Source: Candidatus Woesearchaeota archaeon
Lineage (GTDB): Archaea > Nanobdellota > Nanobdellia > Woesearchaeales > UBA9642
Assembly (NCBI GenBank): GCA_013330595.1
Contig: DUIB01000009.1
Location: forward strand, 74-64,073
DNA: 64,000 nt
Direction of reading: 5' to 3'
Below the pieces are notes generated by a model that saw only the letters and a program-made list of their open reading frames with translations, was not told the origin of the DNA and searched no databases. The position numbers were made by a program, and so were the translations under genes. Positions 3,161 through 63,287 of this stretch are shown here, one piece after another; position 1 is the stretch's first letter; each line of letters begins with the position of its first letter.

Positions 3161-3175
3161 TGTTACCCTTTTTTA

Positions 3176-4888: not shown

Positions 4889-4929
4889 TTTCTTTTATTA
4901 CTTTGTAATGGTTAAATTTTTAAATTGTT

Positions 4930-6606
4930 TTGTTTTTGTGTTTTTTTATGGGTAATTTGTTAGATGATTTTGTTTATTCGTTGAAGAAGGTTGCTGTTGT
5001 TGCGTATACGGCGTCGCAGTTGGCTTTTCCTGTTTTTGCTGGTGATGTTTCTTTATCTGGCAGGGTTGTTAATTCTCATGGTGTTGGTTTGTCTAATAAG
5101 AATGTTGTTTTGTTTTTGAATAATAATGAGAAAAAGTTGAATGGCGTGACTAATGCTGATGGTGTTTATGTTATCCCTTTTACTCCTTCTGACGTTAGGC
5201 ACGAATATTTTTTGCCTGAAGGATATTCTGTTTCTAATAATTATCCTAATCCTTTTAATCCTGCTACTAATGTTAATATTACTCTTCCTGAACGTTCTAG
5301 GGTTGAGATGAAGGTTTATGATATGTTGGCTCAAGAACTTGGCACTGTTGTTGATGGAGAGTATGATGCAGGTGTTCATGGTGTGAATGTTGATTTAGAA
5401 GATTTGGTTTCTAGTCCTTCTCAGGGTGTGTATATTTTAAAGACTGTTATTAATGATGCGTATGCTAATGCTAAGAAGATATTGTTTTTAAGAGATTCTC
5501 AACATGCTGGTAGTTTTAATTTTGGTGGTGTTTCTTCTAATAATTATTTTTCTAAGGTTTCTTTGCAGGATGTTGTTGATTCTATGCATGTTAATGGTAG
5601 GTCTATCCTGCCAACTTCAAAATCTCTTGGTGTGATTATTTCTGGTGATACTGATCTCGGTGATGTGGTTGTTGATTCAGCATTCAATGTTGATGGAAAG
5701 GTCATTTCTACTATTAGGTATGATCAGCCTAATAATCATCTGCCTAATCTTACGGTGATTATTGATGGTTATTCTGCTGTTAGTGATTCTCTTGGTAATT
5801 TCTCTGTTCAGGTGCCTGTTGATAGTGTTGTTCCTCCTCCTTTTTCTGGATTGTCTCCTTGGCATCGTAAGATGGATATTGTTGATGAGAGCATCTGGAC
5901 TAGAAAGAAACACATCTATATCGATGGTGATACATCTAATGTCATTGAAGATGTCTTGACAAAAGCAGACTTTCCAGATAGTGTAATGAACTTTTTGAAT
6001 GAATTATCGTGGAGAGATAAGGGAGGATTGTATGATGTGATTATGCGTTTTGTTGATAAGCCGATTTTTTATATTGTTGCTGATACTACTCAGGATTTTG
6101 GTAAGAATTTTTATAATCTTTTATCAACGTTTGTCAGAGGAACATTGAATGACCTTACAAAAAGTAAAAAATATCCTCTCGGGTTTTTAGAGAATGTTGT
6201 TATTGAGACCGGTGTTAATCCTCCTGCAGATGATACTCCTAGTTATTATGTTATTAAGACAAGTATGGATTATGGAAATGCTTCTGCACTTACTGGTTCA
6301 TTTTCTATTCATCCTGATGGTCAGCCTTATACGCCTGTTTATGCTAAAACCACTTTTGGTGTTTACCCTGAGCCTAGGTTGGATATTATTAAGAAGTTAT
6401 TGGCTCACGAGATTTTGTCTGGTTTGGTGTTTATGCCTACTAGGTCTAATGATTTGTTTAGTGTGTATAATACTGGTCCTTCTGGTAAGATTTTCGATAC
6501 TGATAGGTTGATGTGGAAGTATATTTTTTCTCGAGATAATGGTGTGGATTATCCTGATCTTGATTGGAGCAGGTCTCCGAAGAATCCGTGGATTGATAAT
6601 CCATGA
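4930..6606 (+). CDS. secreted multi-domain protein, paralog 3 of the tandem triplet
   Basis: It has the same architecture. An identical 60-bp tract (5703-5765) is shared with paralogs 1 and 2. Confidence 0.6.
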   Translation: MFLCFFMGNLLDDFVYSLKKVAVVAYTASQLAFPVFAGDVSLSGRVVNSHGVGLSNKNVVLFLNNNEKKLNGVTNADGVYVIPFTPSDVRHEYFLPEGYSVSNNYPNPFNPATNVNITLPERSRVEMKVYDMLAQELGTVVDGEYDAGVHGVNVDLEDLVSSPSQGVYILKTVINDAYANAKKILFLRDSQHAGSFNFGGVSSNNYFSKVSLQDVVDSMHVNGRSILPTSKSLGVIISGDTDLGDVVVDSAFNVDGKVISTIRYDQPNNHLPNLTVIIDGYSAVSDSLGNFSVQVPVDSVVPPPFSGLSPWHRKMDIVDESIWTRKKHIYIDGDTSNVIEDVLTKADFPDSVMNFLNELSWRDKGGLYDVIMRFVDKPIFYIVADTTQDFGKNFYNLLSTFVRGTLNDLTKSKKYPLGFLENVVIETGVNPPADDTPSYYVIKTSMDYGNASALTGSFSIHPDGQPYTPVYAKTTFGVYPEPRLDIIKKLLAHEILSGLVFMPTRSNDLFSVYNTGPSGKIFDTDRLMWKYIFSRDNGVDYPDLDWSRSPKNPWIDNP

Positions 6607-6714: not shown

Positions 6715-8064
6715 GTGTTCTTTATAACGAAAGCTTTATATATTAATTGTATTTCCTATAATACAAAATTAGTACTTTTTGTTCAGTTGGAGATACAAAT
6801 GGATTACAAAGCGATTATTGTCCAATGGATGGAGTTTAAGATTCCTGAAGTTATGCATAGGGATATAAATATTGTTTTGGATAAGGGTTTTATAATAACA
6901 ATCACTGGCCCAAGGAGATCCGGAAAAACGTATATGTGCTTTCAATTAATGCATTCACTGTCAAGGAAAAATCTGTTATATCTAAATTTTGAGGACAATA
7001 AACTGTTAAATGCTGGCGCAGATGATCTTGATAAATTGCTGGAATCATTTTATGAACTTTCTGATGTCAATAAGGATTCCAGGATATGCCTATTTCTAGA
7101 TGAGATACAGAATGTTAGGGATTGGGATGCATGGACGCGGAAGATGCATGATTATAATAAAAACATCCAACTGATAATTACTGGATCCAGCTCTAAGATG
7201 CTGAGTAGGGAGTTATCCACAAAACTTAGAGGACGCACTCTTGAGCATGAAATATTCCCATTGAGTTTTAAGGAGTTTCTTGAATGGAGAAATATTTCCT
7301 ATAATATGAAGACATTAAGCTATAGTAGAGATAAGATAGGCGTAAAGAAAGCTTTCAGTGAATATATGAAAAATGGCGGTTATCCAGCACTTATAAGTTT
7401 CGATGATAGAAAGACTGTTTTGCAATCATACTATGATACAATGATACTTAAGGATGTTGTTGAGAGGCATAATGTCTCTGATGTAAATAAATTAAGGCTA
7501 GTTGCCAATCTTCTTATTGAGTCTGCATCCAGAGAGATATCCTATAATAAGTTGGCCAATAAGCTGAAATCTATTGGCGTAAGCATGAGCAAGAATACAA
7601 TAATAGAATATATCTCCTACATGGAAGAATGCTATCTTGTTTTCCAGAACCTAAAATATGAATATTCCTTAACCAAACAGCTAGGGGCAATAAAGAAACT
7701 GTATGTTATAGATACAGGATTGCTTAATGCAATAAGCTTCAAGTATTCAGAGGATAATGGTAAATTATTGGAGAATATTATTTACATACAATTGAGAAGG
7801 CAAAGCAGGGAAATTTATTATCATTCTGGAAAGAATGAATGTGATTTCATAATTAAAGATGGCAACAGGATTATTTCTGCAATTCAGGCATGCTATGAAT
7901 TGAATGATGATAATAGGGATAGAGAGGTCAAGGGATTGCTTGAAGCTATGAGTGAGCATAAATTGAGAGAGGGATTGATAATTACACTGGATCAAGATGA
8001 TGAGTTTATTATTGATAAGAAAAAGATTAGGGTGGTTCCTGCTTGGAAGTGGCTGTTAGGCTGA
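6715..8064 (+). CDS. AAA+ ATPase with C-terminal DUF4143-like domain (COG1373 family); likely true start at Met ~6796 (MDYKAIIV)
   Basis: Walker A is 'ITGPRRSGKTY'. There are 'LFLDEIQ' and 'ITGSSS' sensor motifs and a C-terminal 'WKWLLG'. It is a paralog of 13644-14909. Confidence 0.65.
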   Translation: MFFITKALYINCISYNTKLVLFVQLEIQMDYKAIIVQWMEFKIPEVMHRDINIVLDKGFIITITGPRRSGKTYMCFQLMHSLSRKNLLYLNFEDNKLLNAGADDLDKLLESFYELSDVNKDSRICLFLDEIQNVRDWDAWTRKMHDYNKNIQLIITGSSSKMLSRELSTKLRGRTLEHEIFPLSFKEFLEWRNISYNMKTLSYSRDKIGVKKAFSEYMKNGGYPALISFDDRKTVLQSYYDTMILKDVVERHNVSDVNKLRLVANLLIESASREISYNKLANKLKSIGVSMSKNTIIEYISYMEECYLVFQNLKYEYSLTKQLGAIKKLYVIDTGLLNAISFKYSEDNGKLLENIIYIQLRRQSREIYYHSGKNECDFIIKDGNRIISAIQACYELNDDNRDREVKGLLEAMSEHKLREGLIITLDQDDEFIIDKKKIRVVPAWKWLLG

Positions 8065-11392: not shown

Positions 11393-11710
11393 TTATTTCT
11401 TGCCTACCTTCTCTTCTTTCATAATCATCTTAGCAATCAAGAACACAACAAATGCAATGATTATGAAGTTCAATAATTCTCCTGCAAATGCGCCGATCTT
11501 CATCACAATTGGGCCGAGATGTATTGCAGATTCTTTCCATGCACCACCCGGGATGAATGGCGTGATTATTGGCATTACGATATTATCAACTAGAGATTTC
11601 ACCAATGCAGTGATCGCAACACCCATGATGAAAGCAACAGCCAATGTCAATACCTTGTATCCCTTTAAAAATTCCTTAAATTCTTTAATTAATTTTGCCA
11701 TCTTTGCCAC
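11393..11710 (-). CDS. mscL: large-conductance mechanosensitive channel MscL
   Basis: The N-terminus has 'KEFKEF', followed by two TM helices and a charged C-terminal tail. The length of 105 aa is typical of MscL. Confidence 0.75.
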   Translation of the reverse strand: MAKMAKLIKEFKEFLKGYKVLTLAVAFIMGVAITALVKSLVDNIVMPIITPFIPGGAWKESAIHLGPIVMKIGAFAGELLNFIIIAFVVFLIAKMIMKEEKVGKK

Positions 11711-11711
11711 C

Positions 11712-11963
11712 TTATTCTGTCCACTTTACGTTTTTGTAATTATATTTGGTTGCTATTAGAATAAGATCTACTAACCACCATATTCCCAAACCACCAAAGG
11801 TTATTAACTTGAGAATTCCTGTACCCACTTTTCCCATCATGAATCTATCAACACCAATCCATCCAAAGATTATAGACATTACCAAACATAAGACCCAATT
11901 AACTTCTCTACCTGAACCTACTGTCTTCTTAGATTTCTTCTTTGCCATAATATCAACCCCCAC
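11712..11963 (-). CDS. TM2 domain-containing membrane protein
   Basis: It has the 'GWIGVDRFMMGKVGTGILKL' motif (GxxGxDRFYxG of the TM2 domain) and two TM helices. Confidence 0.55.
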   Translation of the reverse strand: MGVDIMAKKKSKKTVGSGREVNWVLCLVMSIIFGWIGVDRFMMGKVGTGILKLITFGGLGIWWLVDLILIATKYNYKNVKWTE

Positions 11964-12225
11964 TATACATATGTATACTCAAACGGCTTTTTAAAGGTAG
12001 TGGAAAAAAAGAAAAAATAATATATAAAAAATATTATAAAAATTTTTATTAAAAATTTCGACAGAAATTTTCAGGGTTTAATACAAAGAAATGTAGTACA
12101 TTTCTTGTACACAAAATTTATCAAAATTTTGTTGTACCCCGACCTTTAGGTCGAAATTTTTAGTTCAAAAAATCCTTCGGATTTTTATGTAGCTCCGAAC
12201 AGCGAATTTTTGTTATTTCCAGTCT

Positions 12226-12300
12226 TTGATCACAGCCTGCGCCGCCGCCAACCTAGCTATAGGAACCCTGTATGGTGAGCATGAAACATAGTTTGTATGT
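12226..12300 (-). other. displaced duplicate of the ppdK 3' end (last ~22 codons, synonymously diverged), an att-like remnant
   Basis: The reverse complement translates to YVSCSPYRVPIARLAAAQAVIK, versus the ppdK C-terminus YVSCSPYRVPIARLAAAQAVLK. Nucleotide identity is about 75%. Confidence 0.7.
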
Positions 12301-12313
12301 CTTAATTAGTCTT

Positions 12314-12328
12314 GTTGGTACTACCAAC
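12314..12328. promoter_or_regulatory. perfect 15-nt palindrome GTTGGTACTACCAAC upstream of the HEPN/MNT pair (candidate operator)
   Basis: It is read directly from the sequence and lies about 40 nt upstream of the 12369 start. Confidence 0.3.
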
Positions 12329-12368
12329 CGAAAGATTTAAATAATCCTTTTATGTTTCTATTACCAAC

Positions 12369-12707
12369 ATGGTTGAAAATGACTTAATCAGGAATGCTAG
12401 AATCATAATGAGTTCTGCTGATATGGTGTATTATAAGAAAGATTATACCTCGGCAACAATACTCTACTTCAAGGCAGCATTCCTTATACTTGATTATATA
12501 TTATTGCAGAGCAAAGGCCAAACACCAAAGGATCATACAGAAAGGTTCAGGATGCTTGAATTATCAGATAAAAATCTATATGTGTTTTTAGATAAGAATT
12601 TCAAGATATATAGGCAAACTTACACAACCACGACAGATAAATTCACATGCGATAAAGTGAGGGAAAATGTCAGGAAGATTATTAAAGAATACAAAATTCA
12701 AATCTGA
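12369..12707 (+). CDS. HEPN domain protein (putative toxin of a HEPN/MNT pair)
   Basis: It is a small protein that overlaps the downstream minimal nucleotidyltransferase by 41 nt. Confidence 0.45.
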   Translation: MVENDLIRNARIIMSSADMVYYKKDYTSATILYFKAAFLILDYILLQSKGQTPKDHTERFRMLELSDKNLYVFLDKNFKIYRQTYTTTTDKFTCDKVRENVRKIIKEYKIQI

Positions 12708-13266
12708 AATAAAGAAGTTCTTCATTAAGCATAAACAGTCCATATTAGATATAATAATATTTGGCTCAAGCGTGAGAGAGAAAGATAATCCTGAAGATAT
12801 AGATATACTAATAATATTCATTGACAGGAAAGATTATGATATAAGCTATGAACTGAGAAAGATATTGGAGAAACAGGGATTCAGTATAGAGATTACTGAC
12901 AAGACATATCAAGAGATATTCAAGCAGGATTTCAAGGCAAGAGAAGCATTATTATCAGAAGGATATAGCATAATTAATGAAACATTCTTATCATCAGGAC
13001 TCGGATATAATACTTTTGTATTATTCAAATATGACCTTGGAGATATGAATAAGTCCCAAAGAATGAGATTCTATTACAGCCTATACGGAAGGACAAAGGA
13101 AGATGAAGGAATATTGGAGAAGTACAATGCAAAGAAATTCTCTGAATCAATAATCCTATGTCCTATTAATAATAGTGAATCACTAAAGAATTTCTTCGAA
13201 GAATGGAAGATGAAATACGTATCATTCCCAATAATCATCCCTGAAAGGATAAAGAATGTGATGTAA
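12667..13266 (+). CDS. minimal nucleotidyltransferase (MNT), cognate of the HEPN protein
   Basis: The 'IIFGSSVREKDNPEDIDILI' motif matches the GSx(9-13)DxD motif of the Pol-beta NTase superfamily. Confidence 0.65.
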   Translation: MSGRLLKNTKFKSEIKKFFIKHKQSILDIIIFGSSVREKDNPEDIDILIIFIDRKDYDISYELRKILEKQGFSIEITDKTYQEIFKQDFKAREALLSEGYSIINETFLSSGLGYNTFVLFKYDLGDMNKSQRMRFYYSLYGRTKEDEGILEKYNAKKFSESIILCPINNSESLKNFFEEWKMKYVSFPIIIPERIKNVM

Positions 13267-13295
13267 AAGCTAATGCTACTTTGCTTTTCGTTATA

Positions 13296-13511
13296 TTATA
13301 TGAAATTATAATAATTAATCCCATATTCCTGCGATATTATTACTGATTCATATCCTCTTATGATATCGAATTTATTCTTCAAGTCTCTCATTATAGTGTG
13401 GAATTGAGTGAAGTTATCTACTATGAACTCAAACTCTATATCCCAACTCCCGACGCATTTAATTATAGTATATATCTCTGGCAGTTGCTCTACATATTTT
13501 AGACTATACAT
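13296..13511 (-). CDS. small hypothetical protein
   Basis: This is an ORF only. Confidence 0.2.
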   Translation of the reverse strand: MYSLKYVEQLPEIYTIIKCVGSWDIEFEFIVDNFTQFHTIMRDLKNKFDIIRGYESVIISQEYGINYYNFI

Positions 13512-13603
13512 GCCAGAAGTGTATTATAAATAAAGACACTTTAAGTCAAAAGTGTATAGAAATTAGAGACACCTTTAATATAGATAAGTTTATCTAAGAT
13601 CAT

Positions 13604-13640
13604 TCCTTTGATCACAGCCTGAACAGCAGCCAACTGCAAG
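13604..13640 (-). other. second, more degenerate remnant of the ppdK 3' end (att-like)
   Basis: It shares 'tttgatcacagcctg' with 12225-12239. The reverse complement encodes ...LAAVQAVIK. It lies immediately after the stop of the ATPase gene. Confidence 0.45.
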
Positions 13641-13643
13641 TCT

Positions 13644-14909
13644 TCATTTCTCCAGTAGCCATTTCCAGACAGGCAGAACTTTTATCCTTGTTTTTCCTTG
13701 AATTATTTCTTTTTCAGTGTCGTAAGTTAGGATAATGGTTTTTTTTAATTTCCATCTCTTCTTTGCTTCTCTGATTCCATTTGTCTCTCTATTAATATTT
13801 TCAGAATTCAATTCTAAACAGACTTGAATGGCTAATTTGTCCTTATTTATTACGAAATCGCACTCATTCTTATCTTGTGAATACATAACATCCTTTCCCT
13901 GTCTTTTTAGCTCTAAAAAAACAACATTTTCAAGCAGTTGCGCTTTTATTTGTTGTACGTCAAAAGTCATCAATGTGACAATCCCTGTATCCACAGAATA
14001 AGCTTTTTTTTCTGAAATTGATTGCTTTAGAACTGACTTATCTAATTTTTGAACAAAGAAGAGAATATAACAATCCTCGAGATAATTCATATATTCATAT
14101 AATGAGTCTTTGCTTATCTTAATGCCTTGTGACTTAAGTTCAGTATATTGCTTATTCACTGAGAATTTCTTCCCTATGTTATTCAATAATTTTTTTATAA
14201 TTAGCCTGATAGCGACAGTATTTGTTATTTTATATCTAGAGATTATATCCCTGTATATCATGACTTCTATATATGATTGCAATGTTTTCCTTCTAACTTC
14301 ATCCCTCATATCAATAGTCTCTGGAAATCCTCCGTTAACAAGATAGTTCCCAAATTCTTTTCTAAGCAAAGCTTTTTTCTTTAATGAATATAGATCAATA
14401 GTGTCAACATTCTTGAATTTTAGGTACTCCTTAAATGAGAATGGGTACACCTCGTAATTGATGGCTCTTCCTCTGATGCTTGTGGCAATCTCTTTGCTTA
14501 ATAATTTGGATGAAGAGCCAGTGATGAATATGTTTCGCGTAATAGTGTCGTAGGATCTTCTTATGAATTGTTCCCAATTCTCAACATTCTGTATCTCGTC
14601 AAAGAATAGATACTGCAATTTTCCCTCTGGATAAAGTTCATAGTATGCATCATATATCTCCTGGAGATTTTCCTTCTTTAAATCAAGTCTCTCATCCTCG
14701 AAATTTATGTAGATGATATTTTCTTTAGGGATCTTCTCTCTTAGTGTCTTTATCAGTTGATACATAAGATAGGTCTTTCCTGATCTTCTTACACCACTTA
14801 TTGTTATTATTTTTCTGCTATCTAATGGAACATCTATTGCTCTGAAAGTTATTTCAGGAAGCGCATTGCTGTGGAATTCCTTGATTATTACCTTTATTGC
14901 ATCCTTCAT
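13644..14909 (-). CDS. AAA+ ATPase with DUF4143-like C-terminal domain (COG1373 family)
   Basis: Walker A is 'ISGVRRSGKTY'. There are 'LFFDEIQ' and 'ITGSSS' motifs and a C-terminal 'WKWLLEK'. It is a paralog of 6715-8064. Confidence 0.65.
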   Translation of the reverse strand: MKDAIKVIIKEFHSNALPEITFRAIDVPLDSRKIITISGVRRSGKTYLMYQLIKTLREKIPKENIIYINFEDERLDLKKENLQEIYDAYYELYPEGKLQYLFFDEIQNVENWEQFIRRSYDTITRNIFITGSSSKLLSKEIATSIRGRAINYEVYPFSFKEYLKFKNVDTIDLYSLKKKALLRKEFGNYLVNGGFPETIDMRDEVRRKTLQSYIEVMIYRDIISRYKITNTVAIRLIIKKLLNNIGKKFSVNKQYTELKSQGIKISKDSLYEYMNYLEDCYILFFVQKLDKSVLKQSISEKKAYSVDTGIVTLMTFDVQQIKAQLLENVVFLELKRQGKDVMYSQDKNECDFVINKDKLAIQVCLELNSENINRETNGIREAKKRWKLKKTIILTYDTEKEIIQGKTRIKVLPVWKWLLEK

Positions 14910-14940
14910 ACTGTAAGAATATCGCCTTTATTTATAAAGG

Positions 14941-14960
14941 TTTCCTTCTAAGAAGGAAAG
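14941..14960 (-). terminator. hairpin TTTCCTTCT-AA-AGAAGGAAA downstream of ppdK
   Basis: It has a perfect 9-bp inverted repeat about 35 nt past the ppdK stop. It is flanked by a T-rich tract on the minus strand. Confidence 0.35.
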
Positions 14961-14993
14961 AAATACTATAAAATCTCCTTGTCAGAAGGAAAG

Positions 14994-17645
14994 CTATTTC
15001 AACACAGCCTGCGCAGCTGCAAGTCGCGCTATAGGAACTCTATATGGCGAGCAACTAACATAGTCCAATCCTGCTCTATGACAGAACTCTACTGATTTCG
15101 GCTCTCCGCCGTGTTCTCCGCAGATTCCAAGTTTAATATCCTTGCGGATTTTTCTTCCTTTCTCGCATGCCATCCTGACAAGCAGACCAACTCCTGTCTG
15201 ATCAAGGACAGCAAATGGATCCTTTTCATAGATGTTTTTCTTCAAGTAATCTGGCAAGAACTTTCCGATGTCATCTCGAGAAAATCCTAAAGTCATCTGC
15301 GTGAGATCATTTGTTCCGAAAGAAAAGAATTCTGCTTCAACAGCAATCTCATCGGCAGTAAGAGCAGCTCTGGGAACTTCTATCATCGTTCCAATCAAAT
15401 AATCGACCTTGACATTATATTTCTTCATTACTTGATCAGCAATTCTTTTTATGACTTCTTTCTGATTAATTAATTCTTCAACTTTGCCAACTAAAGGAAC
15501 CATAATCTCTGGCTTGACATCAACTTTCTGTTTTGTCAATTCACATGCTGCTTCCATTATTGCCTGGACTTGCATCTCTGTGATTTCTGGATATGTTATT
15601 CCAAGCCTGCAGCCTCTATGGCCAAGCATAGGGTTCACTTCATGCAGATTCTTAGAGATCTGCATAATCCATTCAGGAGTCACTTTCAGTTCCTTAGCCA
15701 ATTCCTTTATTTCCTTCTGACCTTTTGGAAGAAATTCATGCAATGGAGGATCAAGAAGCCTTATTGTTACAGGCAACCCATTCATCTCCTTGAATAATCC
15801 TAAGAAATCTGATTTCTGGAAAGGAAGAAGTTCAGCTAATGCTTTTCTCCTCTCAATCTCATTATTAGCTAAAATCATTTTCCTCATAGCCTTTATCCTA
15901 TCACCATCAAAGAACATATGCTCTGTCCTGCATAATCCAATGCCTTCTGCACCAAATGCTCTAGCAACCTTTGCATCTCTTGGAATATCTGCATTTGCCC
16001 TGATTTTTAATTTCCTGAATTCATCAGCCCATTCCATTAATATAGAGAAATCGCCAGAAAGATTAGGCTCAACTAAGCCTAATGAGCCTTTAAATACCTG
16101 TCCTAGTGAGCCATCAAGTGTTATGTAATCCATTTCTTTCAAAACAAGATTCTTTTTCTTTATTGTCAATGTTTTTGCCTTTTCATCAACAACAATATCT
16201 TGGCATCCTGAAACACAGCATTTTCCCATTCCACGAGCAACAACTGCCGCATGACTTGTCATTCCACCTCGTGCAGTTAGAATACCTTGAGAAACACTCA
16301 TTCCAATAAGATCTTCAGGGCTTGTCTCTGTTCTTACAAGGACTACTTTTTCATTTTTAGCAACCTCTTCAGCCCTTTCAGCAGTAAACACAATTCTTCC
16401 AACAGCTGCTCCTGGAGATGCAGGCAATCCTGTTGCTATGACTCCTGTTTTTGCTTTAGGATCAATCTGTTTATGCAATAATTGGTCTAATGATTCAGGA
16501 GCAACTCTTAATAATGCTGTTTTTTTATCTATAAGTTTTTCATTAACCATATCAACAGCAATCTTTACAGCACCATGTGCTGTCCTTTTTCCATTTCTTG
16601 TCTGAAGAACATGTAATTTTCCTTCTTGGATTGTGAATTCCATGTCTTGCATGTCCTTGAAATGTTTTTCTATCTTGTTTTTTATTGCAACAAGTTGTTT
16701 ATAGACTTTAGGATTCTGTTTTTCAAGCCCTTCAATATGCTTAGGAGTTCTTATGCCTGCAACAACATCTTCACCTTGAGAATTCATCAAATATTCACCA
16801 TAGAACTTATTCTCTCCAGTAGATGGATTTCTAGAAAAACACACTCCTGTTCCTGAACTCTCACCCATATTACCAAAAACCATTGCTTGAATATTAACAG
16901 CAGTGCCCTTTAATCCTTTAATGTCATTTAATCTCCTGTAAGCAATTGCTCTAGGATTATTCCACGATCCAAAAACTGCTTCAATAGACATGTCTAATTG
17001 AATTCTAGGATCTTCTGGAAAAGATTTTTTAGTGACTTTAAGTATTAATGTCTTATAGTTCTTTACTAATTCTTTAAGATCATCTGCAGTGAGTTCTGTA
17101 TCATAATGAACTTTTCTCTTGTCTTTAATCTTCTGTATCTCCTGCTCAAAATCGTGATGCTCAACACCCATGACAACATTGCCGAACATCTGGATAAATC
17201 TTCTGTATGTATCATAAGCAAATCTCTTGTTTTGAGTCTTATTGATCAATGTCTGAACTACTTGATCATTTATTCCCAGATTAAGAATAGTATCCATCAT
17301 TCCAGGCATGCTATTAGCAGCTCCAGATCTGACTGAGACAAGTAAAGGATTTGTTTTATCATTGAACTTTGCATTAATCTTAGATTCTAGTTTCTTGATA
17401 TTAGCATCAACCTGTTCTTTCAATCCCTTAGGAAACTTCTTTCCTTGAACATAATATTGATCGCATGTTTCAGTTGTTATAGTAAATCCTGAAGGAACTG
17501 GAACATTTAATGAAGTCATTTCAGCTAAATTAGCACCTTTACCGCCTAACAACTCTCGCATCTCTTTCTTACCTTCATCAAAGAAGTAAACCATCTTATT
17601 TTTCTTTACATTGTTTTTCATCATACCCTTCACCCTATGGAACAT
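14994..17645 (-). CDS. ppdK: pyruvate, phosphate dikinase
   Basis: The protein is 883 aa. The N-terminus has the PEP-utilising/ATP-grasp region 'GGKGANLAEM'. The central His-domain has 'GGMTSHAAVVARGMGKCCVSGC'. The C-terminus has the TIM-barrel 'CGEHGGEP'. Confidence 0.9.
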   Translation of the reverse strand: MFHRVKGMMKNNVKKNKMVYFFDEGKKEMRELLGGKGANLAEMTSLNVPVPSGFTITTETCDQYYVQGKKFPKGLKEQVDANIKKLESKINAKFNDKTNPLLVSVRSGAANSMPGMMDTILNLGINDQVVQTLINKTQNKRFAYDTYRRFIQMFGNVVMGVEHHDFEQEIQKIKDKRKVHYDTELTADDLKELVKNYKTLILKVTKKSFPEDPRIQLDMSIEAVFGSWNNPRAIAYRRLNDIKGLKGTAVNIQAMVFGNMGESSGTGVCFSRNPSTGENKFYGEYLMNSQGEDVVAGIRTPKHIEGLEKQNPKVYKQLVAIKNKIEKHFKDMQDMEFTIQEGKLHVLQTRNGKRTAHGAVKIAVDMVNEKLIDKKTALLRVAPESLDQLLHKQIDPKAKTGVIATGLPASPGAAVGRIVFTAERAEEVAKNEKVVLVRTETSPEDLIGMSVSQGILTARGGMTSHAAVVARGMGKCCVSGCQDIVVDEKAKTLTIKKKNLVLKEMDYITLDGSLGQVFKGSLGLVEPNLSGDFSILMEWADEFRKLKIRANADIPRDAKVARAFGAEGIGLCRTEHMFFDGDRIKAMRKMILANNEIERRKALAELLPFQKSDFLGLFKEMNGLPVTIRLLDPPLHEFLPKGQKEIKELAKELKVTPEWIMQISKNLHEVNPMLGHRGCRLGITYPEITEMQVQAIMEAACELTKQKVDVKPEIMVPLVGKVEELINQKEVIKRIADQVMKKYNVKVDYLIGTMIEVPRAALTADEIAVEAEFFSFGTNDLTQMTLGFSRDDIGKFLPDYLKKNIYEKDPFAVLDQTGVGLLVRMACEKGRKIRKDIKLGICGEHGGEPKSVEFCHRAGLDYVSCSPYRVPIARLAAAQAVLK

Positions 17646-19342: not shown

Positions 19343-19579
19343 GTGCATAAAATGGTTAGCTTAACATTATCTATACCAGAAGAACTGAAGGCAAGAATGG
19401 ATCAACACAGCGAGATTAATTGGAGCGAAGTCGCGAGGAAAGCAATAATGCAAAGATTAGAGGATTTTGAGTTTATGAAGAGAATTAGAGAGAAGAGCAC
19501 TATGACAGAGAAAGATGCTATTGAATTAGGCAGAATGATAAAAAGATCTACAGCCAAAAGATATAATGATTTTAAGTGA
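19343..19579 (+). CDS. ribbon-helix-helix (CopG/VapB-like) antitoxin
   Basis: It has the N-terminal beta-strand 'VSLTLSIPEELKARMD'. It overlaps the downstream PIN gene by 14 nt. Confidence 0.5.
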   Translation: MHKMVSLTLSIPEELKARMDQHSEINWSEVARKAIMQRLEDFEFMKRIREKSTMTEKDAIELGRMIKRSTAKRYNDFK

Positions 19580-19976
19580 AATTATGGAAATGGTTATTGA
19601 TGCGAATATTGTGTTTGCTGCAATAATTAAAAGGACGAAAACCTTAGAACTAATGTTTGAGGAAAATATTAGGTTATATGCTCCGGAAACAATATTAATA
19701 GAGCTTGAGAAGTATCAGGATTATCTGTGCAGAAAAGGCAACATGACTACTGAAGAACTTAAATCAATGATATTTAGGCTCAAGAATGTGATAACAATAA
19801 TTTATCTAGGAGAGCTAGTATCACAGATTCCTGAAGCAAGGAACATCTGTCCTGATCCAGGAGACATTCCCTATTTTGCTCTTGCCTTAAAGATGAATAT
19901 CCCAATATGGTCCAATGATAAAGAATTGAAGAAACAGAAGAGAGTAAAGATCTTTACGACAGATGAGTTGATGTGA
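19566..19976 (+). CDS. PIN-domain ribonuclease (VapC-like toxin)
   Basis: It has the 'VIDANIVFAAI' N-terminal acidic motif and a 'WSNDKEL' C-terminal motif. Confidence 0.6.
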   Translation: MILSEIMEMVIDANIVFAAIIKRTKTLELMFEENIRLYAPETILIELEKYQDYLCRKGNMTTEELKSMIFRLKNVITIIYLGELVSQIPEARNICPDPGDIPYFALALKMNIPIWSNDKELKKQKRVKIFTTDELM

Positions 19977-20681
19977 TTATTTCTTCCACATGTATTCAAA
20001 ATAATTCTTATATGTTTGTGCAATGCTCTTGTTTTTTATGAATATGATTAATGGAGTGTCTGTAAGTGTGTGTATTGCAACTTTATCATCAAATATAGTT
20101 GTTGTAGATTCCGCATCGACTTTATCGACAAATTTTATCTTAACATTTTTAAGTTTAGTCATAGGATGTTTTTTTAACTTTGAGTCCACAATCATTCTTC
20201 CCTTAATTTTCAACATCTGAGATTCTTTGATTATATGTCCTAACTCATATTTCAATACATCGTAGCTTTTTCCTGTAGCGCCAAAAACCATTATCTCTCT
20301 CGATTTTAACATATTCTCATATAATACTTTCAATCCTTTTTTTCCTTCATAAATCTCTGCTTCTTGTATATTCTCTTGAAGTTTTTGTATTGACTTTAGC
20401 TCAGGAATAATATTACTTATTAAATGCTCTTTTTCTTTGAATGAAATTAATATTGAATCAGGATTTGTTGCTGCGAAATATTTTTTGTTTTCTTTGACTA
20501 TATATCCTGCATAACCTTTTGCAATAAGATTATTAAGAAGTTGATAACACAAAGTCCTATCCATAGAGAGTTTTTTTGCTAAATCATTTGCCGAGATTGA
20601 TCCTCTCTTCAATAATTCAAGATAGATCTTGGCTTCATTTCCTGTAAACCCTGCAATCTTAAGCTTTTCTATTAGATCCAT
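19977..20681 (-). CDS. TrmB-family transcriptional regulator
   Basis: It has an N-terminal wHTH 'GFTGNEAKIYLELLKRGSISANDLAKKLSMDRTLCYQLLNNLIAKGY' plus a C-terminal TrmB effector-like domain. Confidence 0.7.
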   Translation of the reverse strand: MDLIEKLKIAGFTGNEAKIYLELLKRGSISANDLAKKLSMDRTLCYQLLNNLIAKGYAGYIVKENKKYFAATNPDSILISFKEKEHLISNIIPELKSIQKLQENIQEAEIYEGKKGLKVLYENMLKSREIMVFGATGKSYDVLKYELGHIIKESQMLKIKGRMIVDSKLKKHPMTKLKNVKIKFVDKVDAESTTTIFDDKVAIHTLTDTPLIIFIKNKSIAQTYKNYFEYMWKK

Positions 20682-21993: not shown

Positions 21994-23844
21994 TTATTCT
22001 CCCTTATACTTCTTCACTAATTCCATGATCCTTGATCCAGGGAATTTGCCTCTGTACTTCTTCATGGTTTCGCCCATTAAGGCTGCAGAATTCAGATTAG
22101 GATGTTTGGATATCAGGTTGACAATGAATGATATCAATTCTTCTTCATTTGTTTTGTATATAGAGAAATCAATTGTATTGCCTTTTGCATATTCGACCAT
22201 GATCTCTATTATTGCTTCTTTTGCTAGGTCTCCTGAATTTAATTTTGCTAATATATTATCAGCCAGCTCTCTGAATCTTTCCAATTCAACATCAATCTCA
22301 AGATTGAATCTTGTCTTTACTTCTTTTGGTGTTGAAACCAAAATCTCAGCAATCGTTACTGGTTTTACTTGAGGATATTTCTTTACAAATATTTCAAAAT
22401 CATTCTCAAAAACTAATTCCTTTGCAACCTGTGCAGGCAATGAGTATTTTTTTTCAAATCTCACCACTTTATCCTTAATCAATTCTGGCATCTCAATTTC
22501 ACTTAGATCAGGGATTATTGTCTTTACATCTGTCTCGGGATACATTCTTGAGCTTCCAGGCATTGGCCTTAAGAATGATGATGTTCCATCTTCTCGAGCA
22601 TTGCGCACTTCTTTTGACAATCCTTTATCATAGAATGATTTGATTGTTTCATCAATCTTATTAAATGCAAATTTGCATTTTTCTTCTGTCCCGATAATCA
22701 TTATCAACGAATCTGAATCATCAAGATTCAATGCGTCATAAATTTTCTTTACTTCATCAGCAATCTTATATTTATTCAGATCCTCATCTGTATGTATCAA
22801 TCCGTTTAATCCAAATGCTTTTATCCTGTCGCTCAATTCTGAGCCAAATCTTCTGGAAGGATTGACTTCAAATCCGAAAAACCCTTTGAAATCCTTATAG
22901 AATTTTCCATAAACTCTTGAATCAACATTCTTTTTTATCATAGAACTCTTAGTATCAGAAAAATATTCAGTTAAATCTATAATTTCATTTGATAAATCAA
23001 GTTTTTTTATTCTTGCTCTTATCTCATCACGTAATTTCAACATAGTTAATTGTCTTAACACTTCAAGCTCAACAACAGTATCAATCATCCTTAAATCCTG
23101 AACACCTTTAATTTCTGTTCTTGCACCTTCTGCAATTGATACATTAACATCTTGCCTGATTGTTCCGAGTCCTCTCTTGACTTTTCCAGTAGAACGAAGC
23201 ATCATTCCAATAAATCCTGCAATATCCTTAACTTGTTTAGCTGTTCTCATATCAGGACCCGTCGCAATCTCAATCAATGGAATTCCTAATCTATCAAGAC
23301 GATAAATATCATGATCCTGGTCTCTTGAAATAATCCTTGCTGCATCCTCTTCCAAACATAATGTATCAATCTTTATCCTGTTTAATTTTTCATCACTTTC
23401 AACTTCAATAAAACCATTTCTTGCAATCAATGCAGTCCTCTGAAATCCAGATGTATTAGAACCATCAACAACAGTCTTTCTCATGACATGCACTTGATTA
23501 ACTGTCTCTGCATTCATCATCTTTGATAATTGAAGAACAATCTTCAATGCTTCAGGATTGATATTGAATGGGGGGCATTCATCAAGCTCAACGTCGCAGA
23601 TAGTATCATTATAGTATTCATACACATAATGTTTCTGCTTAGACATCTCATATGCAGCAGCAATATCAACAGATCCTGTCTCACCAGCACTTGCTCTTAA
23701 TACTCTCTTGATAGTTTTGTCAGGAGCATCCTCCCTAATATCAGAAGGACAATTGCAGAACAACTTATTTGTATCAAGCTGCTGATGTATCTCCAATCCG
23801 GCTTTTAGGCCTAGTTTGGCATAATCCACATCTCTCATGAGCAT
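21994..23844 (-). CDS. gatE: glutamyl-tRNA(Gln) amidotransferase subunit E
   Basis: The protein is 616 aa. The N-terminus has 'GLEIHQQLDTNKLFCNCPS', a GatB/E-like catalytic domain and a C-terminal GatB/YqeY-like tail. Confidence 0.85.
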   Translation of the reverse strand: MLMRDVDYAKLGLKAGLEIHQQLDTNKLFCNCPSDIREDAPDKTIKRVLRASAGETGSVDIAAAYEMSKQKHYVYEYYNDTICDVELDECPPFNINPEALKIVLQLSKMMNAETVNQVHVMRKTVVDGSNTSGFQRTALIARNGFIEVESDEKLNRIKIDTLCLEEDAARIISRDQDHDIYRLDRLGIPLIEIATGPDMRTAKQVKDIAGFIGMMLRSTGKVKRGLGTIRQDVNVSIAEGARTEIKGVQDLRMIDTVVELEVLRQLTMLKLRDEIRARIKKLDLSNEIIDLTEYFSDTKSSMIKKNVDSRVYGKFYKDFKGFFGFEVNPSRRFGSELSDRIKAFGLNGLIHTDEDLNKYKIADEVKKIYDALNLDDSDSLIMIIGTEEKCKFAFNKIDETIKSFYDKGLSKEVRNAREDGTSSFLRPMPGSSRMYPETDVKTIIPDLSEIEMPELIKDKVVRFEKKYSLPAQVAKELVFENDFEIFVKKYPQVKPVTIAEILVSTPKEVKTRFNLEIDVELERFRELADNILAKLNSGDLAKEAIIEIMVEYAKGNTIDFSIYKTNEEELISFIVNLISKHPNLNSAALMGETMKKYRGKFPGSRIMELVKKYKGE

Positions 23845-23887
23845 GAAGAAAGGAATCCTGAATTTAAATGTTGCGGAAGAATAAAAA
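23797..23887. repeat. left copy of a ~90-bp direct repeat (gatE 5' coding end plus promoter)
   Basis: It is repeated at 30032-30123 with about 85% identity. Together the copies bracket the DGR/toxin-antitoxin/purF-like segment. Confidence 0.6.
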
Positions 23888-23910: not shown

Positions 23911-24004
23911 CTATTCCAACGAGGCGATTATTGTTGTTGTCTAGATTGTTCCTAGCATTAGCATTTGAATTATTGTTGAGCCTGGAAACAAACCACAAGT
24001 GCCC
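23911..24004 (-). repeat. DGR template repeat (TR), sense on the minus strand
   Basis: This 94-nt copy is near-identical to 24403-24496. Thirteen of 14 differences are at TR adenines (AAY codons; the in-frame TR translation is ...LNNNSNANARNNLDNNNNRLV...). It is not part of a full-length gene. Confidence 0.75.
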
Positions 24005-24259
24005 CCAGAGTAGCTCTTTCACTGAAAGTATGCACTGCCACTTCATTTCTAACAGAAATCCACAGATTTCTGGAAGATCCCAAAAATGTTTCATTTTTGA
24101 TATCTGTCGTAGCTGTATTTTATAACAACATCCGCATGTTATCGTAGTGAAAGGGCATGTAGTCCAGCTACTCCATATCGCACGATTTTTCGGAAATCAT
24201 GCAAAGTGCTGGGATAATAAGAACGTTAAAGAAGAAATATAAAAAGTTAATGAAAAAAA

Positions 24260-25045
24260 TTACAATTTTACTGAAGGGTCAGCAGAAGGCACATACAACA
24301 ATCCATTGTATTGGAATGCCTTTCCACCAATCAACGCATCCTTGACCTTGTCATCCAATGCAAAAGATGCCTGATTTTTGCTCGCCGACTGCGCCTTCGG
24401 CGCTACCCCAACGAGGCGAACATTGTCGTCGTCTAGATTGCCCCTAGCAATAGCATCTGAATCATTGATGAGCCTGGAAGCAAACCACAAGCGCCCTACG
24501 GGCACGTCTGGAGTGTCACTAACATAGACTCCCATAATCTTGCTGTAGCCATGATCTGCTTTTGCTTTATCGAATGCTTTTCCTGCATATTCTTCAAGCA
24601 GTGCTTGATCTCTAGCTAATGCTTTCCATATTGGGTTTGATATTACTTCTTTTCGTGATAATGATTCTCCTTTTGCGTATTTGTTGAGTTCATCTCTTGT
24701 GAATTCTTGTCCTTCTAACGCCTTGTATTCGTCATCAGAAATGATTAATGCTCCATTCTTTAATTTACTTTGTGGGTTGATTCTTCGCATGATTCCTGAA
24801 TCAAGAACAACCTTAGCATTTCCATTTGTATTGTAGAACTTTGCGTCTCCTGTATCGAAATAATTTTCCCAGAAAGTTTTTATCAGATCTTGGTCTCCAG
24901 AATTTAATGTTTCTAGTCTCCGCTGCATCAATCCCTGCGTTGACATTGGTGTTCTGCCTTCAGCAATAAGTAAAGGCATCTGGTCAGTATTTCTTCCATA
25001 AAATTCCTTATAATCTTTGACTGTATCATTAAGTTGTAAAGCCAT
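24260..25045 (-). CDS. DGR variable (target) protein, 261 aa; possible C-type-lectin-like variable ligand-binding region (fold uncertain)
   Basis: It carries the variable repeat at codons ~184-214 ('GRLWFASRLINDSDAIARGNLDDDNVRLVGV'). The corresponding TR codons are Asn-rich. Confidence 0.7.
   Translation of the reverse strand: MALQLNDTVKDYKEFYGRNTDQMPLLIAEGRTPMSTQGLMQRRLETLNSGDQDLIKTFWENYFDTGDAKFYNTNGNAKVVLDSGIMRRINPQSKLKNGALIISDDEYKALEGQEFTRDELNKYAKGESLSRKEVISNPIWKALARDQALLEEYAGKAFDKAKADHGYSKIMGVYVSDTPDVPVGRLWFASRLINDSDAIARGNLDDDNVRLVGVAPKAQSASKNQASFALDDKVKDALIGGKAFQYNGLLYVPSADPSVKL
24385..24420 (-). promoter_or_regulatory. IMH-like GC-rich VR 3' end (CGCCTCGTTGGGGTAG) followed immediately by the GC hairpin GCGCC-GAA-GGCGC
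   Basis: The TR end reads CGCCTCGTTGGAATAG, an IMH* differing by 2 nt. The 5-bp GC stem with a 3-nt loop is extremely GC-rich for this genome. It matches the canonical DGR homing cis-element layout. Confidence 0.55.
24403..24496 (-). repeat. DGR variable repeat (VR) inside the target gene
   Basis: It aligns with the TR. Adenine-specific substitutions include N->D/I/G/V, H->R and I->V. Confidence 0.75.
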
Positions 25046-25232
25046 TTTAATTACCTCCTCTTAGGATATATTTTATAAGATATATTAGAACTTATTTATA
25101 AAGGTTTCGATTATTTTGCCACTCGATAGTGGTATCCATATATGATTAAATTGTTGGTGAAACATTTTAAAGCATGACGAAACTTCAAACAGCCATAAAA
25201 TTCAGTTAAAAACTATAAAAACAAGGATTACA

Positions 25233-26864: not shown

Positions 26865-26982
26865 TCTTCGCTTTTATCTATAATTCTTCCGGAAAATTCT
26901 GCAAACTGCATTAAAAAAACCAAAACCTTTATATAGTAATTCATTATATTTCATTATGTTTTGTTATAAAAGGTGATGTTTT

Positions 26983-27228: not shown

Positions 27229-27499
27229 ATTCTCGATTGAAGAAGGCTTGAGGAAAACCTTAAATAAATTATTCAAAAAAGATCGGGTTACTTATGAAAT
27301 TTTAATGAAAAAAATTGAAGAGATATTGTCAAATAATGATATCAGTCATTACAAGAATTTAAGAAGTCCTCTTCAAGATTTCAAAAGAGTCCATGTAAGA
27401 GGACCGTTTATCTTGACTTTCAAATATGTTGAATCAGAAGATAAAATAATATTCTATGATTTTGATCATCATGATTATATTTATAGAAAAGATAAATAA
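27215..27499 (+). CDS. RelE/ParE-family toxin
   Basis: The C-terminal 'KRVHVRGPFILTFKYVESEDKIIFYDFDHHDYIY' matches the RelE/ParE fold consensus. Confidence 0.6.
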   Translation: MNMHKFSIEEGLRKTLNKLFKKDRVTYEILMKKIEEILSNNDISHYKNLRSPLQDFKRVHVRGPFILTFKYVESEDKIIFYDFDHHDYIYRKDK

Positions 27500-27589
27500 T
27501 TTTCACTCTCATCCGTAATTCTTCCGAAAAATTCTGAGTAATGCATATAAAGAATCGCGTATTATCCTATTCAAAGAAAACCTTTATAA

Positions 27590-30031: not shown

Positions 30032-30123
30032 CCATAATCTTTAATCTTAGTTTAGAGTAATCTAAATCTCCCATGAGCATAAAGAAAAGAATCCTTAATT
30101 TAAATGTTGCGGAACGAATAAAT
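30032..30123. repeat. right copy of the ~90-bp gatE 5'/promoter direct repeat
   Basis: Its reverse complement encodes MLMGDLDYSKLRLK (gatE: MLMRDVDYAKLGLK), preceded by the same TTTAAAT promoter block. Confidence 0.6.
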
Positions 30124-60070: not shown

Positions 60071-60158
60071 GTATCTTAGTGTGACAAACAGGATTATCTG
60101 ACTTTAAGATAGTTCTTTCAACAGCAAAATTAATAAATTCCGTCAGGTATCCGGAATT

Positions 60159-60752: not shown

Positions 60753-61038
60753 AAATACTCAATGAAATGGATTATGTTGAACTTTATGCCAAAAAATTAA
60801 AAATAGATAATAAGCTCTTTCATAATCAAAAAATGCTAATAAATTCCCAGATAGAAGGAAGCTCTTCCTTATTTAATAATATGTTCAAGAAAAATTTTAA
60901 GCAACAGGCAAGAGAATATCTTAGGGGAATCGGATTAATAAATTAGGAGCTCATGAATTCTATACCAGCAATACCACAACCCATCCAAGTAAACATCCTA
61001 CTGTGACAAATGGCATTGCTGGATAGAACCTATGCATG

Positions 61039-62360: not shown

Positions 62361-63287
62361 TCAAATCAACAGCACAATAACCCATCCTATTAAGCATCCT
62401 GTTGTGACAAATGGCATTGCCGGGTAGAATTTATCTTTCTTGGCAAAGAAGAATAATAATGCAAGGGCAATTGTTGTTGTTAGTATCATTATTGATGATT
62501 GCATGAATGCCTGGCTTTTAGTCAATCCTTCAACCAATAATCCTTCCATTACAGCTCCTGTCAGTATTAATGGGAATACAACATCTCCACCGCCAAGAAT
62601 TGCTGTCTTTGGCTTTTCAGATACTGATTGTTTTGCAGCTTTTGTTTTTACAGATATTTTCTTCATCTGTTTCATCTTATACGGAATCATCAATCCTGCA
62701 AAGATATTGCTTTGAGTCTGGAACTTAGCCATCTTGATCATATGCTTTGATTTCCATACAGCATACATGTCATACAATGATATAACCAGCAACAGCATTA
62801 TTGACCAGAAAACATCAAATATAGGAACTAAAAGAACTGCAATGCCCGCATATATCAACACTTCAGTAATATTATGTATAACAATATTTGTCCTGAAGAT
62901 CTTCCATGCTGCCAATATTAATGCAATAAGCATAGCTGCATCATATACAAAATACCATCCTGTTTTTACAATAACTCCTATTGATATGGACATTGCCATC
63001 CATACAGCAAGGAAAAACCAGAACTTCCAAATATTCACTTTCTTGAATCTTGCAAGTATCAATACAAGGATTGTTCCTATAGCAACTCCAATGATAAGAT
63101 AAAGAAAGCTTCCTGCACCTTTGGTCTCTGGTCTTGGGCCTAATGATGTATCTTCATGAGCAACAACAATATTTCCAGCATCATCCTTTAATACTGCAGC
63201 ATCAATGTTTATCAACCATAATCCTGCTACTTGTGCTAAAATAAAGAATACCAATAAAGTTATTGTGATTAATAAATTATGCTTCAT
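62361..63287 (-). CDS. presenilin/signal-peptide-peptidase-like intramembrane aspartyl protease (A22)
   Basis: It is polytopic. It has 'LYDMYAV' (YD), 'LGGGDVVFPLIL' (GxGD) and a 'YPAMPF' PAL-like motif. Confidence 0.5.
   Translation of the reverse strand: MKHNLLITITLLVFFILAQVAGLWLINIDAAVLKDDAGNIVVAHEDTSLGPRPETKGAGSFLYLIIGVAIGTILVLILARFKKVNIWKFWFFLAVWMAMSISIGVIVKTGWYFVYDAAMLIALILAAWKIFRTNIVIHNITEVLIYAGIAVLLVPIFDVFWSIMLLLVISLYDMYAVWKSKHMIKMAKFQTQSNIFAGLMIPYKMKQMKKISVKTKAAKQSVSEKPKTAILGGGDVVFPLILTGAVMEGLLVEGLTKSQAFMQSSIMILTTTIALALLFFFAKKDKFYPAMPFVTTGCLIGWVIVLLI

Follow-up and report, generated by a model that had tools for sequence, protein, structure and literature searches.

Integration of mobile DNA into the 3' end of a protein-coding gene, with restoration of the gene by an end that the element itself supplies, is an established strategy. 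In Escherichia coli, the replacement end that e14 provides to icd differs mainly by synonymous or conservative changes, and the displaced end is left as a fragment, icdC, at the far side of the element (PMC13626634). Restoration of a coding sequence by a fragment of attP has been described together with tandem arrays of elements (PMC7192596), and 14 of 68 integrated elements of thaumarchaea lie in the 3' ends of coding sequences (PMC6563490). Here we analyse a 64,000-nucleotide (nt) stretch of AT-rich DNA (hereafter the window; G+C 33%), which is judged by its closest ppdK relatives to come from a woesearchaeotal (DPANN) archaeon, and in which three copies of the 3' end of ppdK, the pyruvate phosphate dikinase gene, bracket two small groups of genes. 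An earlier note on this DNA had presented end restoration in a protein gene as an analogue of islands that target tRNA genes; the three studies just cited show that the principle is already known, and the ppdK case adds little to it in principle.

The open reading frame (ORF) of ppdK, 883 amino acids long, aligns with its relatives right to the C-terminus, and 2.77 kb separate its stop codon from the TM2-domain gene. In L001, L002 and L003 (genome collection; ppdK 88%, 85% and 83% identical to that of the window, respectively) and in L082 (metagenome), ppdK is followed by a spacer of 76-140 nt and then by TM2 and MscL, so that the comparison with ppdK neighbourhoods in related genomes suggested in the earlier note has yielded empty sites. 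The TM2 promoter sequence is conserved between the window and the relatives. The 2.77 kb are a real insertion, which leaves ppdK intact. An assembly artefact is ruled out by the island being more than 99.96% identical in three independent assemblies (ENA, JGI) and by the ATPase gene of the island having the same neighbours on 24 of the 24 contigs read. Across the clade, the interval between ppdK and TM2/MscL is variable: it measures 0.4, 0.8, 2.9, 4.8 and 8.7 kb in L081, L084, L089, L092 and L085, respectively. The gene, its three end copies and its native neighbours map as follows.

14994..17645, minus strand: ppdK (pyruvate phosphate dikinase), 883 amino acids, intact; Pfam PPDK_N, PEP-utilizers and PEP-utilizers_C; 78-88% identical to woesearchaeotal relatives
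14994..15064, minus strand: R1, proximal repeat, the present ppdK 3' end (last 22 codons and TAG); direct-repeat family D17/D19
13604..13642, minus strand: R2, middle repeat, the ppdK end in degenerate form (LAAVQAVIK), which aligns over 36 nt when indels are allowed; family D19
12213..12293, minus strand: R3, distal repeat, the ppdK end at full length, (N)YVSCSPYRVPIARLAAAQAVIKDWK and stop; family D17
11393..11963, minus strand: TM2-domain gene (11712-11963) and MscL (11393-11710), native downstream neighbours of ppdK; Pfam

The last 22 codons of ppdK (14997-15062, minus strand) encode YVSCSPYRVPIARLAAAQAVLK, and the 22-codon stretch of R3 (12225-12290) encodes YVSCSPYRVPIARLAAAQAVIK; DWK and a stop codon come next (12213-12224). 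The two peptides are identical at 21 of 22 residues, with 15 of the 66 bases different (23%); ten codons are changed, nine of them synonymously and one giving L to I. The re-encoding of the ppdK C-terminus with the same residues and one L to I change, as read in the earlier note, is therefore confirmed, with its position corrected from 12226-12300. Among 200,000 random sets of 15 substitutions in the ppdK end, none kept at least 21 residues. R1 and R3 are 78% identical, and their longest identical run is at most 13 nt. Because their differences are almost purely synonymous, both copies must have spent the time of their divergence as working ppdK ends, in separate lineages, before being united; an in-place duplication followed by drift, as well as chance, is excluded by the synonymous-only divergence. 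Chance as the origin of the copies is ruled out by the constraint trials together with the number of matches, since the core CACAGCCTGCGCNGCNGC (at most three mismatches) occurs in the window at R1, R2 and R3 only, against an expectation of 0.02.

The shorter remnant of the ppdK end described before is also found: LAAVQAVIK is encoded at 13604-13630, and a gapped alignment to the gene end spans 36 nt and reaches 13642. R2 begins 1 nt past the stop codon of the ATPase gene. The stretch common to all three copies is 9 nt long (CAGGCTGTG), and R2 and R3 share 16 nt. All three are direct repeats on the same strand, in tandem arrangement and not nested as had been stated; of the two copies that the earlier note took to be synonymously diverged, R3 is so, and R2 is too short for the comparison.

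As for the question of which end is native, ppdK now ends with AVLK before its stop codon, and 14 of 14 close relatives run one to five residues further. R3 has such a tail (IKDWK and stop; compare IKDKK and stop in L002) and lies on the native TM2 promoter side. Because the tail of the relatives is absent from the present gene and kept in R3 on that side, the extreme 3' end of the present ppdK, that is, the last bases of R1, was probably imported with an incoming cassette, and the native end that was displaced probably survives in R3, at least in the 3' portion of that copy. Nucleotide identity to the 14 relatives gave no decision between the copies, the range of R1 (45-54 of 66 bases) overlapping that of R3 (44-49 of 66); the background level over the 300 nt upstream is 67-79%.

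The segments between the copies carry the following features.

14910..14993 (about 85 nt), minus strand: promoter/operator of the ATPase cassette, directly after the ppdK stop codon, with two TTTCCTT-N-AAGGAAA palindromes (inverted repeat I1) and a TATA-like TTTATAAAT box
14926-14993 in the window, about 60-165 in L257, about 185-265 in L258, 3950-4000 in L259 and 3925-4000 in L262: palindrome-pair sites
13644..14909, minus strand: cargo of cassette 1, AAA_14 and DUF4143 ATPase, 421 amino acids; Pfam E = 2e-41 and 6e-16; PADLOC PDC-S01, E = 2e-115
13296..13511, minus strand: orf71, 5'-truncated remnant (last approximately 66 amino acids) of a tandem Lrp/AsnC-type gene of 318 amino acids; tblastn
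12667..13266, plus strand: cargo of cassette 2, MNT-type nucleotidyltransferase, 199 amino acids; Pfam Polbeta E = 1e-5, NTP_transf_2 above cut-off
12369..12707, plus strand: cargo of cassette 2, HEPN-like partner, 112 amino acids, overlapping the MNT gene; Pfam HEPN weak, E = 0.0065, below cut-off
12300..12368, plus strand: operator/promoter of the HEPN/MNT module, with palindromes TTGGTACTACCAA and TATTACCAACATGG
11990..12212, minus strand: hairpin-rich stretch of approximately 190-220 nt between R3 and the conserved TM2 promoter; RNA fold z = -6.2

The AAA/DUF4143 ATPase previously proposed at 13644-14909 is supported by the Pfam matches to both domains, and as PADLOC defence candidate PDC-S01 it is a candidate defence gene. 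DUF4143 has been placed in the PD-(D/E)XK superfamily (PMC3424549). The nearest non-identical homologues of the protein are 56% identical and scattered over bacteria and Nanoarchaeota, and a homologue is absent from every other ppdK locus examined. Paired TTTCCTT-N(4-6)-AAGGAAA palindromes, followed by a TTTATA box, are conserved upstream of AAA_14/DUF4143 genes in five unrelated contexts, and the pair probably serves as an autoregulatory operator and moves together with the gene.

Specifically for orf71, its region matches the Lrp-like genes of L085 and L092 (tblastn, E = 4e-9 and 1e-10, respectively) over residues approximately 252-317 only, and tblastn gave no homology to the Lrp-like gene upstream of the orf71 ATG. 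A full Lrp-like gene is located downstream of ppdK in L085, L088 and L092. Because orf71 is a truncated Lrp/AsnC remnant, at least one deletion has taken place at this locus. As to the HEPN/MNT pair of the earlier note, the nucleotidyltransferase is clear, whereas the HEPN match of its partner is weak. The MNT family is small and DPANN-restricted; the MNT gene is 53% identical to the gene at the equivalent position in L085, and the HEPN-like partner 64% identical to its L085 counterpart. The pairing is kept in five other loci, including L085, L249, L253 and L255, and GTTGGTAnTACCAAC motifs are repeated upstream of the homologous pairs in L249, L253 and L255. No viral relatives of the MNT gene or of a 287-amino-acid ORF of L085 were found. 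In addition, the hairpin-rich stretch has no second copy in the window or in any of the fetched loci and is absent from the relatives, it has 12-nt inverted ends (AAAAATTTCGAC / GTCGAAATTTTT), and it may be an insert resembling a miniature inverted-repeat transposable element or a leftover of the array; no Rfam match was obtained in 11900-15100, even at E<=1.

The same kind of layout was found at the ppdK gene of L085, which is 78% identical to that of the window (L086 holds an identical stretch), with three copies of the gene end.

5189-5279 of L085: copy 1, the ppdK gene end
9796-9884 of L085: copy 2, 89 nt, 96% identical, comprising the last 26 nt of ppdK and 63 nt downstream
10916-10933 of L085: copy 3, exact match to the 18-nt core GCATGCAGCGATAAAGAA

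The 18-nt core is exact in two of the three copies and matches at 16 of 18 positions in the middle one; each copy keeps a stop codon soon after the core (NRR, NPK and NK before the stop), and upstream of the exact core of copy 3 the ppdK end survives only as decayed traces. Copies 1 and 2 are separated by 4.6 kb, which contain six ORFs without annotation and the complete Lrp-like gene; the C-terminus of this gene enters copy 2. The MNT and HEPN homologues (53% and 64%) lie between copies 2 and 3 in the same orientation as in the window. The HEPN/MNT module is therefore bracketed by ppdK-end copies in both the window and L085, and the two arrangements suggest that recombination has used the ppdK end on two or more occasions in this clade.

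All together, we consider with moderate confidence that the 2.77 kb are a decayed tandem array of two small integrase-less cassettes flanked by attachment (att) sites, which entered by conservative recombination at the ppdK end with replacement of that end. Both cassettes would have entered within roughly the last 7-22 codons of ppdK; the incoming circular DNA would have brought its own copy of the ppdK end, and recombination would have rebuilt an intact gene and shifted the previous end downstream. The native end, ..CAGGCTGTG-ATCAAAGACTGGAAATAA, would correspond to the right part of R3. A first element, with the Lrp-like gene and the HEPN/MNT module, would have integrated and placed R3 at its far end, and a deletion would then have shortened the Lrp-like gene to orf71. 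Subsequently, a compact cassette, formed by the ATPase gene and its own promoter/operator, would have integrated proximally via the 9-nt core CAGGCTGTG, producing R1 with its new stop ..TTGAAATAG and the hybrid R2. The common crossover core would be CAGGCTGTG, of which R2 and R3 share the longer form CAGGCTGTGATCAAAG. In this scheme, R1 would consist of native ppdK, the core and the new stop from the ATPase cassette, R2 of the arm of the ATPase cassette, the core and the arm of the first element, and R3 of the arm of the first element, the core and the native tail.

The serial integration at the 3' end of the gene, with a replacement end, that the earlier note had envisaged agrees with what is directly observed, namely the insertion relative to the relatives, the repeats that bound and subdivide it, a gene that is still intact, the constraint on the coding sequence and the return of the layout in L085, a second genome, together with the difference in the tails. 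The recombinase, acting in trans or since lost, the crossover point, the order of the events and the present mobility of the cassettes are what we infer from these observations. The units would be either remnants or moved by a recombinase encoded elsewhere that uses short, simple sites.

Several results weigh against this reading. No integrase, resolvase, transposase or Cas1 was found by Pfam and NCBIfam in about 70 ORFs of the window, including those of the cassettes (about 60 ORFs scanned with Pfam and 10 unannotated ones with NCBIfam), and neither Pfam nor PHROGs gave a recombinase in the 4.6 kb element of L085. Because none was found in either, the site-specific character that the earlier note had attributed to the integrations is something we infer, and the truncation of orf71 indicates a history that did not consist of two clean integrations. 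Each cassette measures 1.4 kb from promoter to stop, far below typical integrative elements, and leaves no room for arm-type sites. The identical core of all three copies is only 9 nt, and no identical run shared by R1 and R3 exceeds 13 nt. R2 is truncated, with indels, and since it lies on the opposite side of the Lrp-like remnant from the middle repeat of L085, extra rearrangements must be assumed. The HEPN/MNT identities between the window and L085 (64% and 53%) are close to those of the flanking TM2 and MscL (67% and 60%), which leaves room for an old vertical inheritance with repeated loss. Moreover, among 240 other loci containing ppdK ends (80 genome, 80 metagenome and 80 IMG/VR loci), a second copy of the ppdK end was found in L085/L086 only, so that the ppdK end is ruled out as a widely used site. 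On many of the IMG/VR predicted viral contigs (L161-L240, mostly from one sample-series group), the ppdK 3' end is located 0.1-2.5 kb from one edge; no displaced copy of it was found on these contigs, and ppdK may border prophages in some bacteria.

Small groups of genes bracketed by direct repeats are present at other loci as well. One of these, in the same window, is the end of a presenilin-like gene.

62361..63287, minus strand: presenilin/SPP-like protease gene
62361-62432 (S1), 60960-61031 (S2) and 60044-60111 (third, more degenerate): direct repeats of the presenilin-like 3' end
61611-62267 and 61039-61632: AbiEii/AbiEi pair between S1 and S2
60159-60752: gene of 197 amino acids without family match, between the second and third copies of the presenilin end

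S1 and S2 comprise the last 23 codons and the stop codon of the presenilin-like gene. They differ at 18 of 72 bases, with five amino-acid changes, all conservative, and with the position of the stop codon kept; this constraint was matched by 3 of 100,000 random trials. The relatives L244, L245 and L247 are without the inserts of the presenilin locus. At a third locus of the window, the 5' end of gatE and its upstream region are directly repeated (23804-23885 versus 30040-30122; 75-83 nt, 84%) and bracket an island of 6.2 kb; gatD and gatE are adjacent in L003, and 10 kb separate them in the window. The displaced gatE copy differs from that of ppdK in having non-conservative amino-acid changes.

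The HEPN/MNT pair occurs in other neighbourhoods in L249, L253 and L255. In L255, three direct repeats that do not derive from ppdK (2413-2435, 3500-3551 and 7212-7263) bracket the pair and a 3.7 kb segment; the segment contains MazE-like, tandem AsnC-type and RHH/PIN genes, in a layout as in the window. A single AAA_14/DUF4143 gene is bracketed by 43-nt direct repeats, 93% identical, in L257 (1-43 and 1465-1506) and by 102-nt direct repeats, 98% identical, in L262 (3723-3824 and 5418-5519). The bracketing repeats of these two Nanoarchaeota contigs are host sequence; that of L262 begins with the stop codon of a gene for an M16 peptidase and takes in the start of a small ORF. The bracketing repeat in L258 is marginal, and no flanking repeats were found for the second AAA_14/DUF4143 gene of the window (6715-8064) or for the gene of L259. 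Loci of the L249-L262 type were reached through their cargo genes, and the frequency of bracketed cassettes among them is therefore biased; a rough count of bracket-type repeats in DPANN against bacterial loci was set aside for this reason and because paralogue matches were mixed in with its hits.

No terminal inverted repeats bracket either cassette at ppdK, and the flanking repeats, 18-102 nt long across the cases, have no fixed size; a DNA transposon or casposon is rejected on the lack of terminal inverted repeats, of a target-site duplication of fixed length and of a transposase or Cas1. No tRNA target is present in the window or in L085, L244, L249, L253 and L255. The window holds no Phage_integrase or IntI-type match, and the ppdK-end copies show no excess structure as single strands (z = -0.3, -1.3 and +0.75), so that an integron cassette array was discarded in view of the absence of IntI from the window and of attC-like folding from the copies; S2, at the presenilin-like locus, does fold (z = -4.1). 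By eye only, no convincing motif common to the repeats of different loci was seen.

Among the other explanations, general homologous recombination is the first to be weighed, and we regard it as possible, with a limited chance of being correct. A circle with homology to the ppdK end would enter through one crossover of the Campbell type, by which the stretch of homology is duplicated with no dedicated recombinase, in agreement with the fact that no recombinase gene was found; such a circle might have arisen in another cell, as a cassette looped out between repeats. As this mechanism needs, the youngest repeats are long and near-identical (89 nt and 96% in L085; 102 nt and 98% in L262), and repeat lengths of 18-102 nt fit homology blocks better than a fixed recombinase site. 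However, R1 and R3, 78% identical and with no identical run above 13 nt, are a poor substrate, and the mechanism explains neither how a cassette first acquired a foreign gene end nor why the repeats of three loci coincide so exactly with the ends of genes. For the young repeats of L085 and L262, recombination of looped-out circles is a serious alternative; for R1 and R3 it is an unlikely one.

A further, rather doubtful possibility is an undescribed system of DPANN archaea (Woesearchaeota and Nanoarchaeota), in which single defence or toxin-antitoxin cassettes, each with its own promoter/operator, would enter and leave the ends of conserved housekeeping genes, with a recombinase acting in trans on short, simple sites and with the gene end as att site. 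Its footprints would be the three loci in the 64 kb window together with L085, L255, L257 and L262. Such a system would be a functional counterpart of the integron, without IntI or attC.

It is improbable that the locus is an old, vertically inherited variable region, in which the Lrp-like gene, the HEPN/MNT module and the repeats were present in the ancestor of the window and L085 and were lost in close relatives, the repeats being relics of local duplication. The Lrp-like gene downstream of ppdK in L085, L088 and L092, with its remnant in the window, and the HEPN/MNT divergence similar to that of the flanking host genes are in line with such a history. Nevertheless, a clean loss that restored the short ppdK-TM2 spacer would be needed in each of the five closest relatives (ppdK 83-88% identical), and local duplication does not account for synonymous-only divergence. 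The ATPase, moreover, lacks a homologue at other ppdK loci and has its nearest relatives, at 56%, in bacteria and Nanoarchaeota, and the HEPN/MNT pair is present at unrelated loci elsewhere.

Least probable of all are long target-site duplications from staggered breaks followed by fill-in, the breaks being made perhaps by the AAA_14/DUF4143 protein itself, which couples an ATPase to a PD-(D/E)XK nuclease-fold domain (DUF4143 superfamily listing), whose single-gene inserts are tightly bracketed by repeats in the window, L257, L262 and marginally L258 (three or four unrelated contexts) and whose cassette has compact limits, from the promoter palindromes to the stop codon. Two copies made in this way would be identical at first, and the displaced one should then decay neutrally, whereas nearly all differences within the pairs R1/R3 and S1/S2 are synonymous or conservative (0 of 200,000 and 3 of 100,000 trials); different cargo (HEPN/MNT, AbiE) has the same kind of flanks, repeat length is variable, no terminal inverted repeats were found, and the AAA genes at 6715-8064 of the window and in L259 have no flanking repeats.

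Elsewhere in the window, a diversity-generating retroelement occupies 23911-26864.

23911-24004: template repeat; 24403-24496: variable repeat, in the 3' end of gene 24260-25045
24005-24212: Rfam RT-16 RNA, 63 bits
25233-26864: reverse transcriptase with HTH_40 domain

Its template and variable repeats have 14 mismatches, and at 13 of these the template has an adenine. A direct repeat of 66-69 nt (26853-26918 and 27486-27554; 76-78%; 633 nt apart), located among the small ORFs that separate the reverse transcriptase from a PIN gene, may mark another small cassette. Three tandem paralogues of about 560 amino acids, 61-68% identical and with CarboxypepD_reg and Por_Secre_tail matches, lie at 1466-6606 and are probably surface proteins. 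The window is unusually rich in toxin-antitoxin-like modules, which include a TrmB-like gene with a DUF6036 nucleotidyltransferase (14-1406) and a PIN_2 and RHH_12 pair (19566-20190; the RHH_12 gene was seen in the gene calls of L241).

In conclusion, under the favoured reading of a decayed array of integrase-less cassettes, ppdK, whose C-terminus is conserved across bacteria and archaea, would serve as an attachment site in DPANN archaea with reduced genomes, and defence and toxin-antitoxin genes of these archaea would come in very small units, bracketed by repeats and stacked behind housekeeping genes. Units mobilised in trans, if that is what they are, would represent a route for the exchange of defence genes among the tiny genomes of symbiotic archaea, as well as a source of compact recombination sites and enzymes. 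In addition, the synonymous-only divergence of displaced gene ends is a signature that would allow automatic detection in metagenome-assembled genomes without annotated integrases.

With respect to the known systems, prophage e14 (and phage 21) at icd shares with the window the choice of a conserved metabolic gene, the 3' end of which receives the element, the supply of a replacement end with mainly synonymous or conservative differences, and the displaced end left on the far side; as a prophage of 15 kb, however, e14 encodes an integrase and its excision is proven, whereas the units of the window are 1.4 kb long, carry one or two cargo genes, have no recombinase that we found and are putatively mobile. 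Integrase-less att-flanked derivatives, such as the cis-mobilisable elements beside ICESt1/ICESt3 at the 3' end of fda and the satellite or remnant units of genomic islands, persist and may be mobilised in trans. In contrast to these, neither the array nor the 64 kb window contains an autonomous partner element, and every unit seen, at three loci of the window and on four other DPANN contigs, is without a recombinase.

In tandem arrays of integrative elements (PMC7192596, PMC6563490), as in the window, successive integrations reuse att sites, giving several direct att copies and differing cargo. The archaeal elements of PMC6563490 encode integrases or Cas1 and have att sites with a median of 17 bp, while the repeat in the window extends up to 22 codons and no integrase was found; the target is in both cases the 3' end of a coding sequence, a new stop is supplied, and empty sites in relatives are the proof. 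Finally, the window repeats are copies of host gene ends and not attC, and no IntI-like gene was found, which separates them from chromosomal integrons, where the recombinase acts in trans on every cassette; the likeness to chromosomal integrons lies in the promoter-proximal cassettes of a single gene or a toxin-antitoxin pair, separated from one another by similar repeats.

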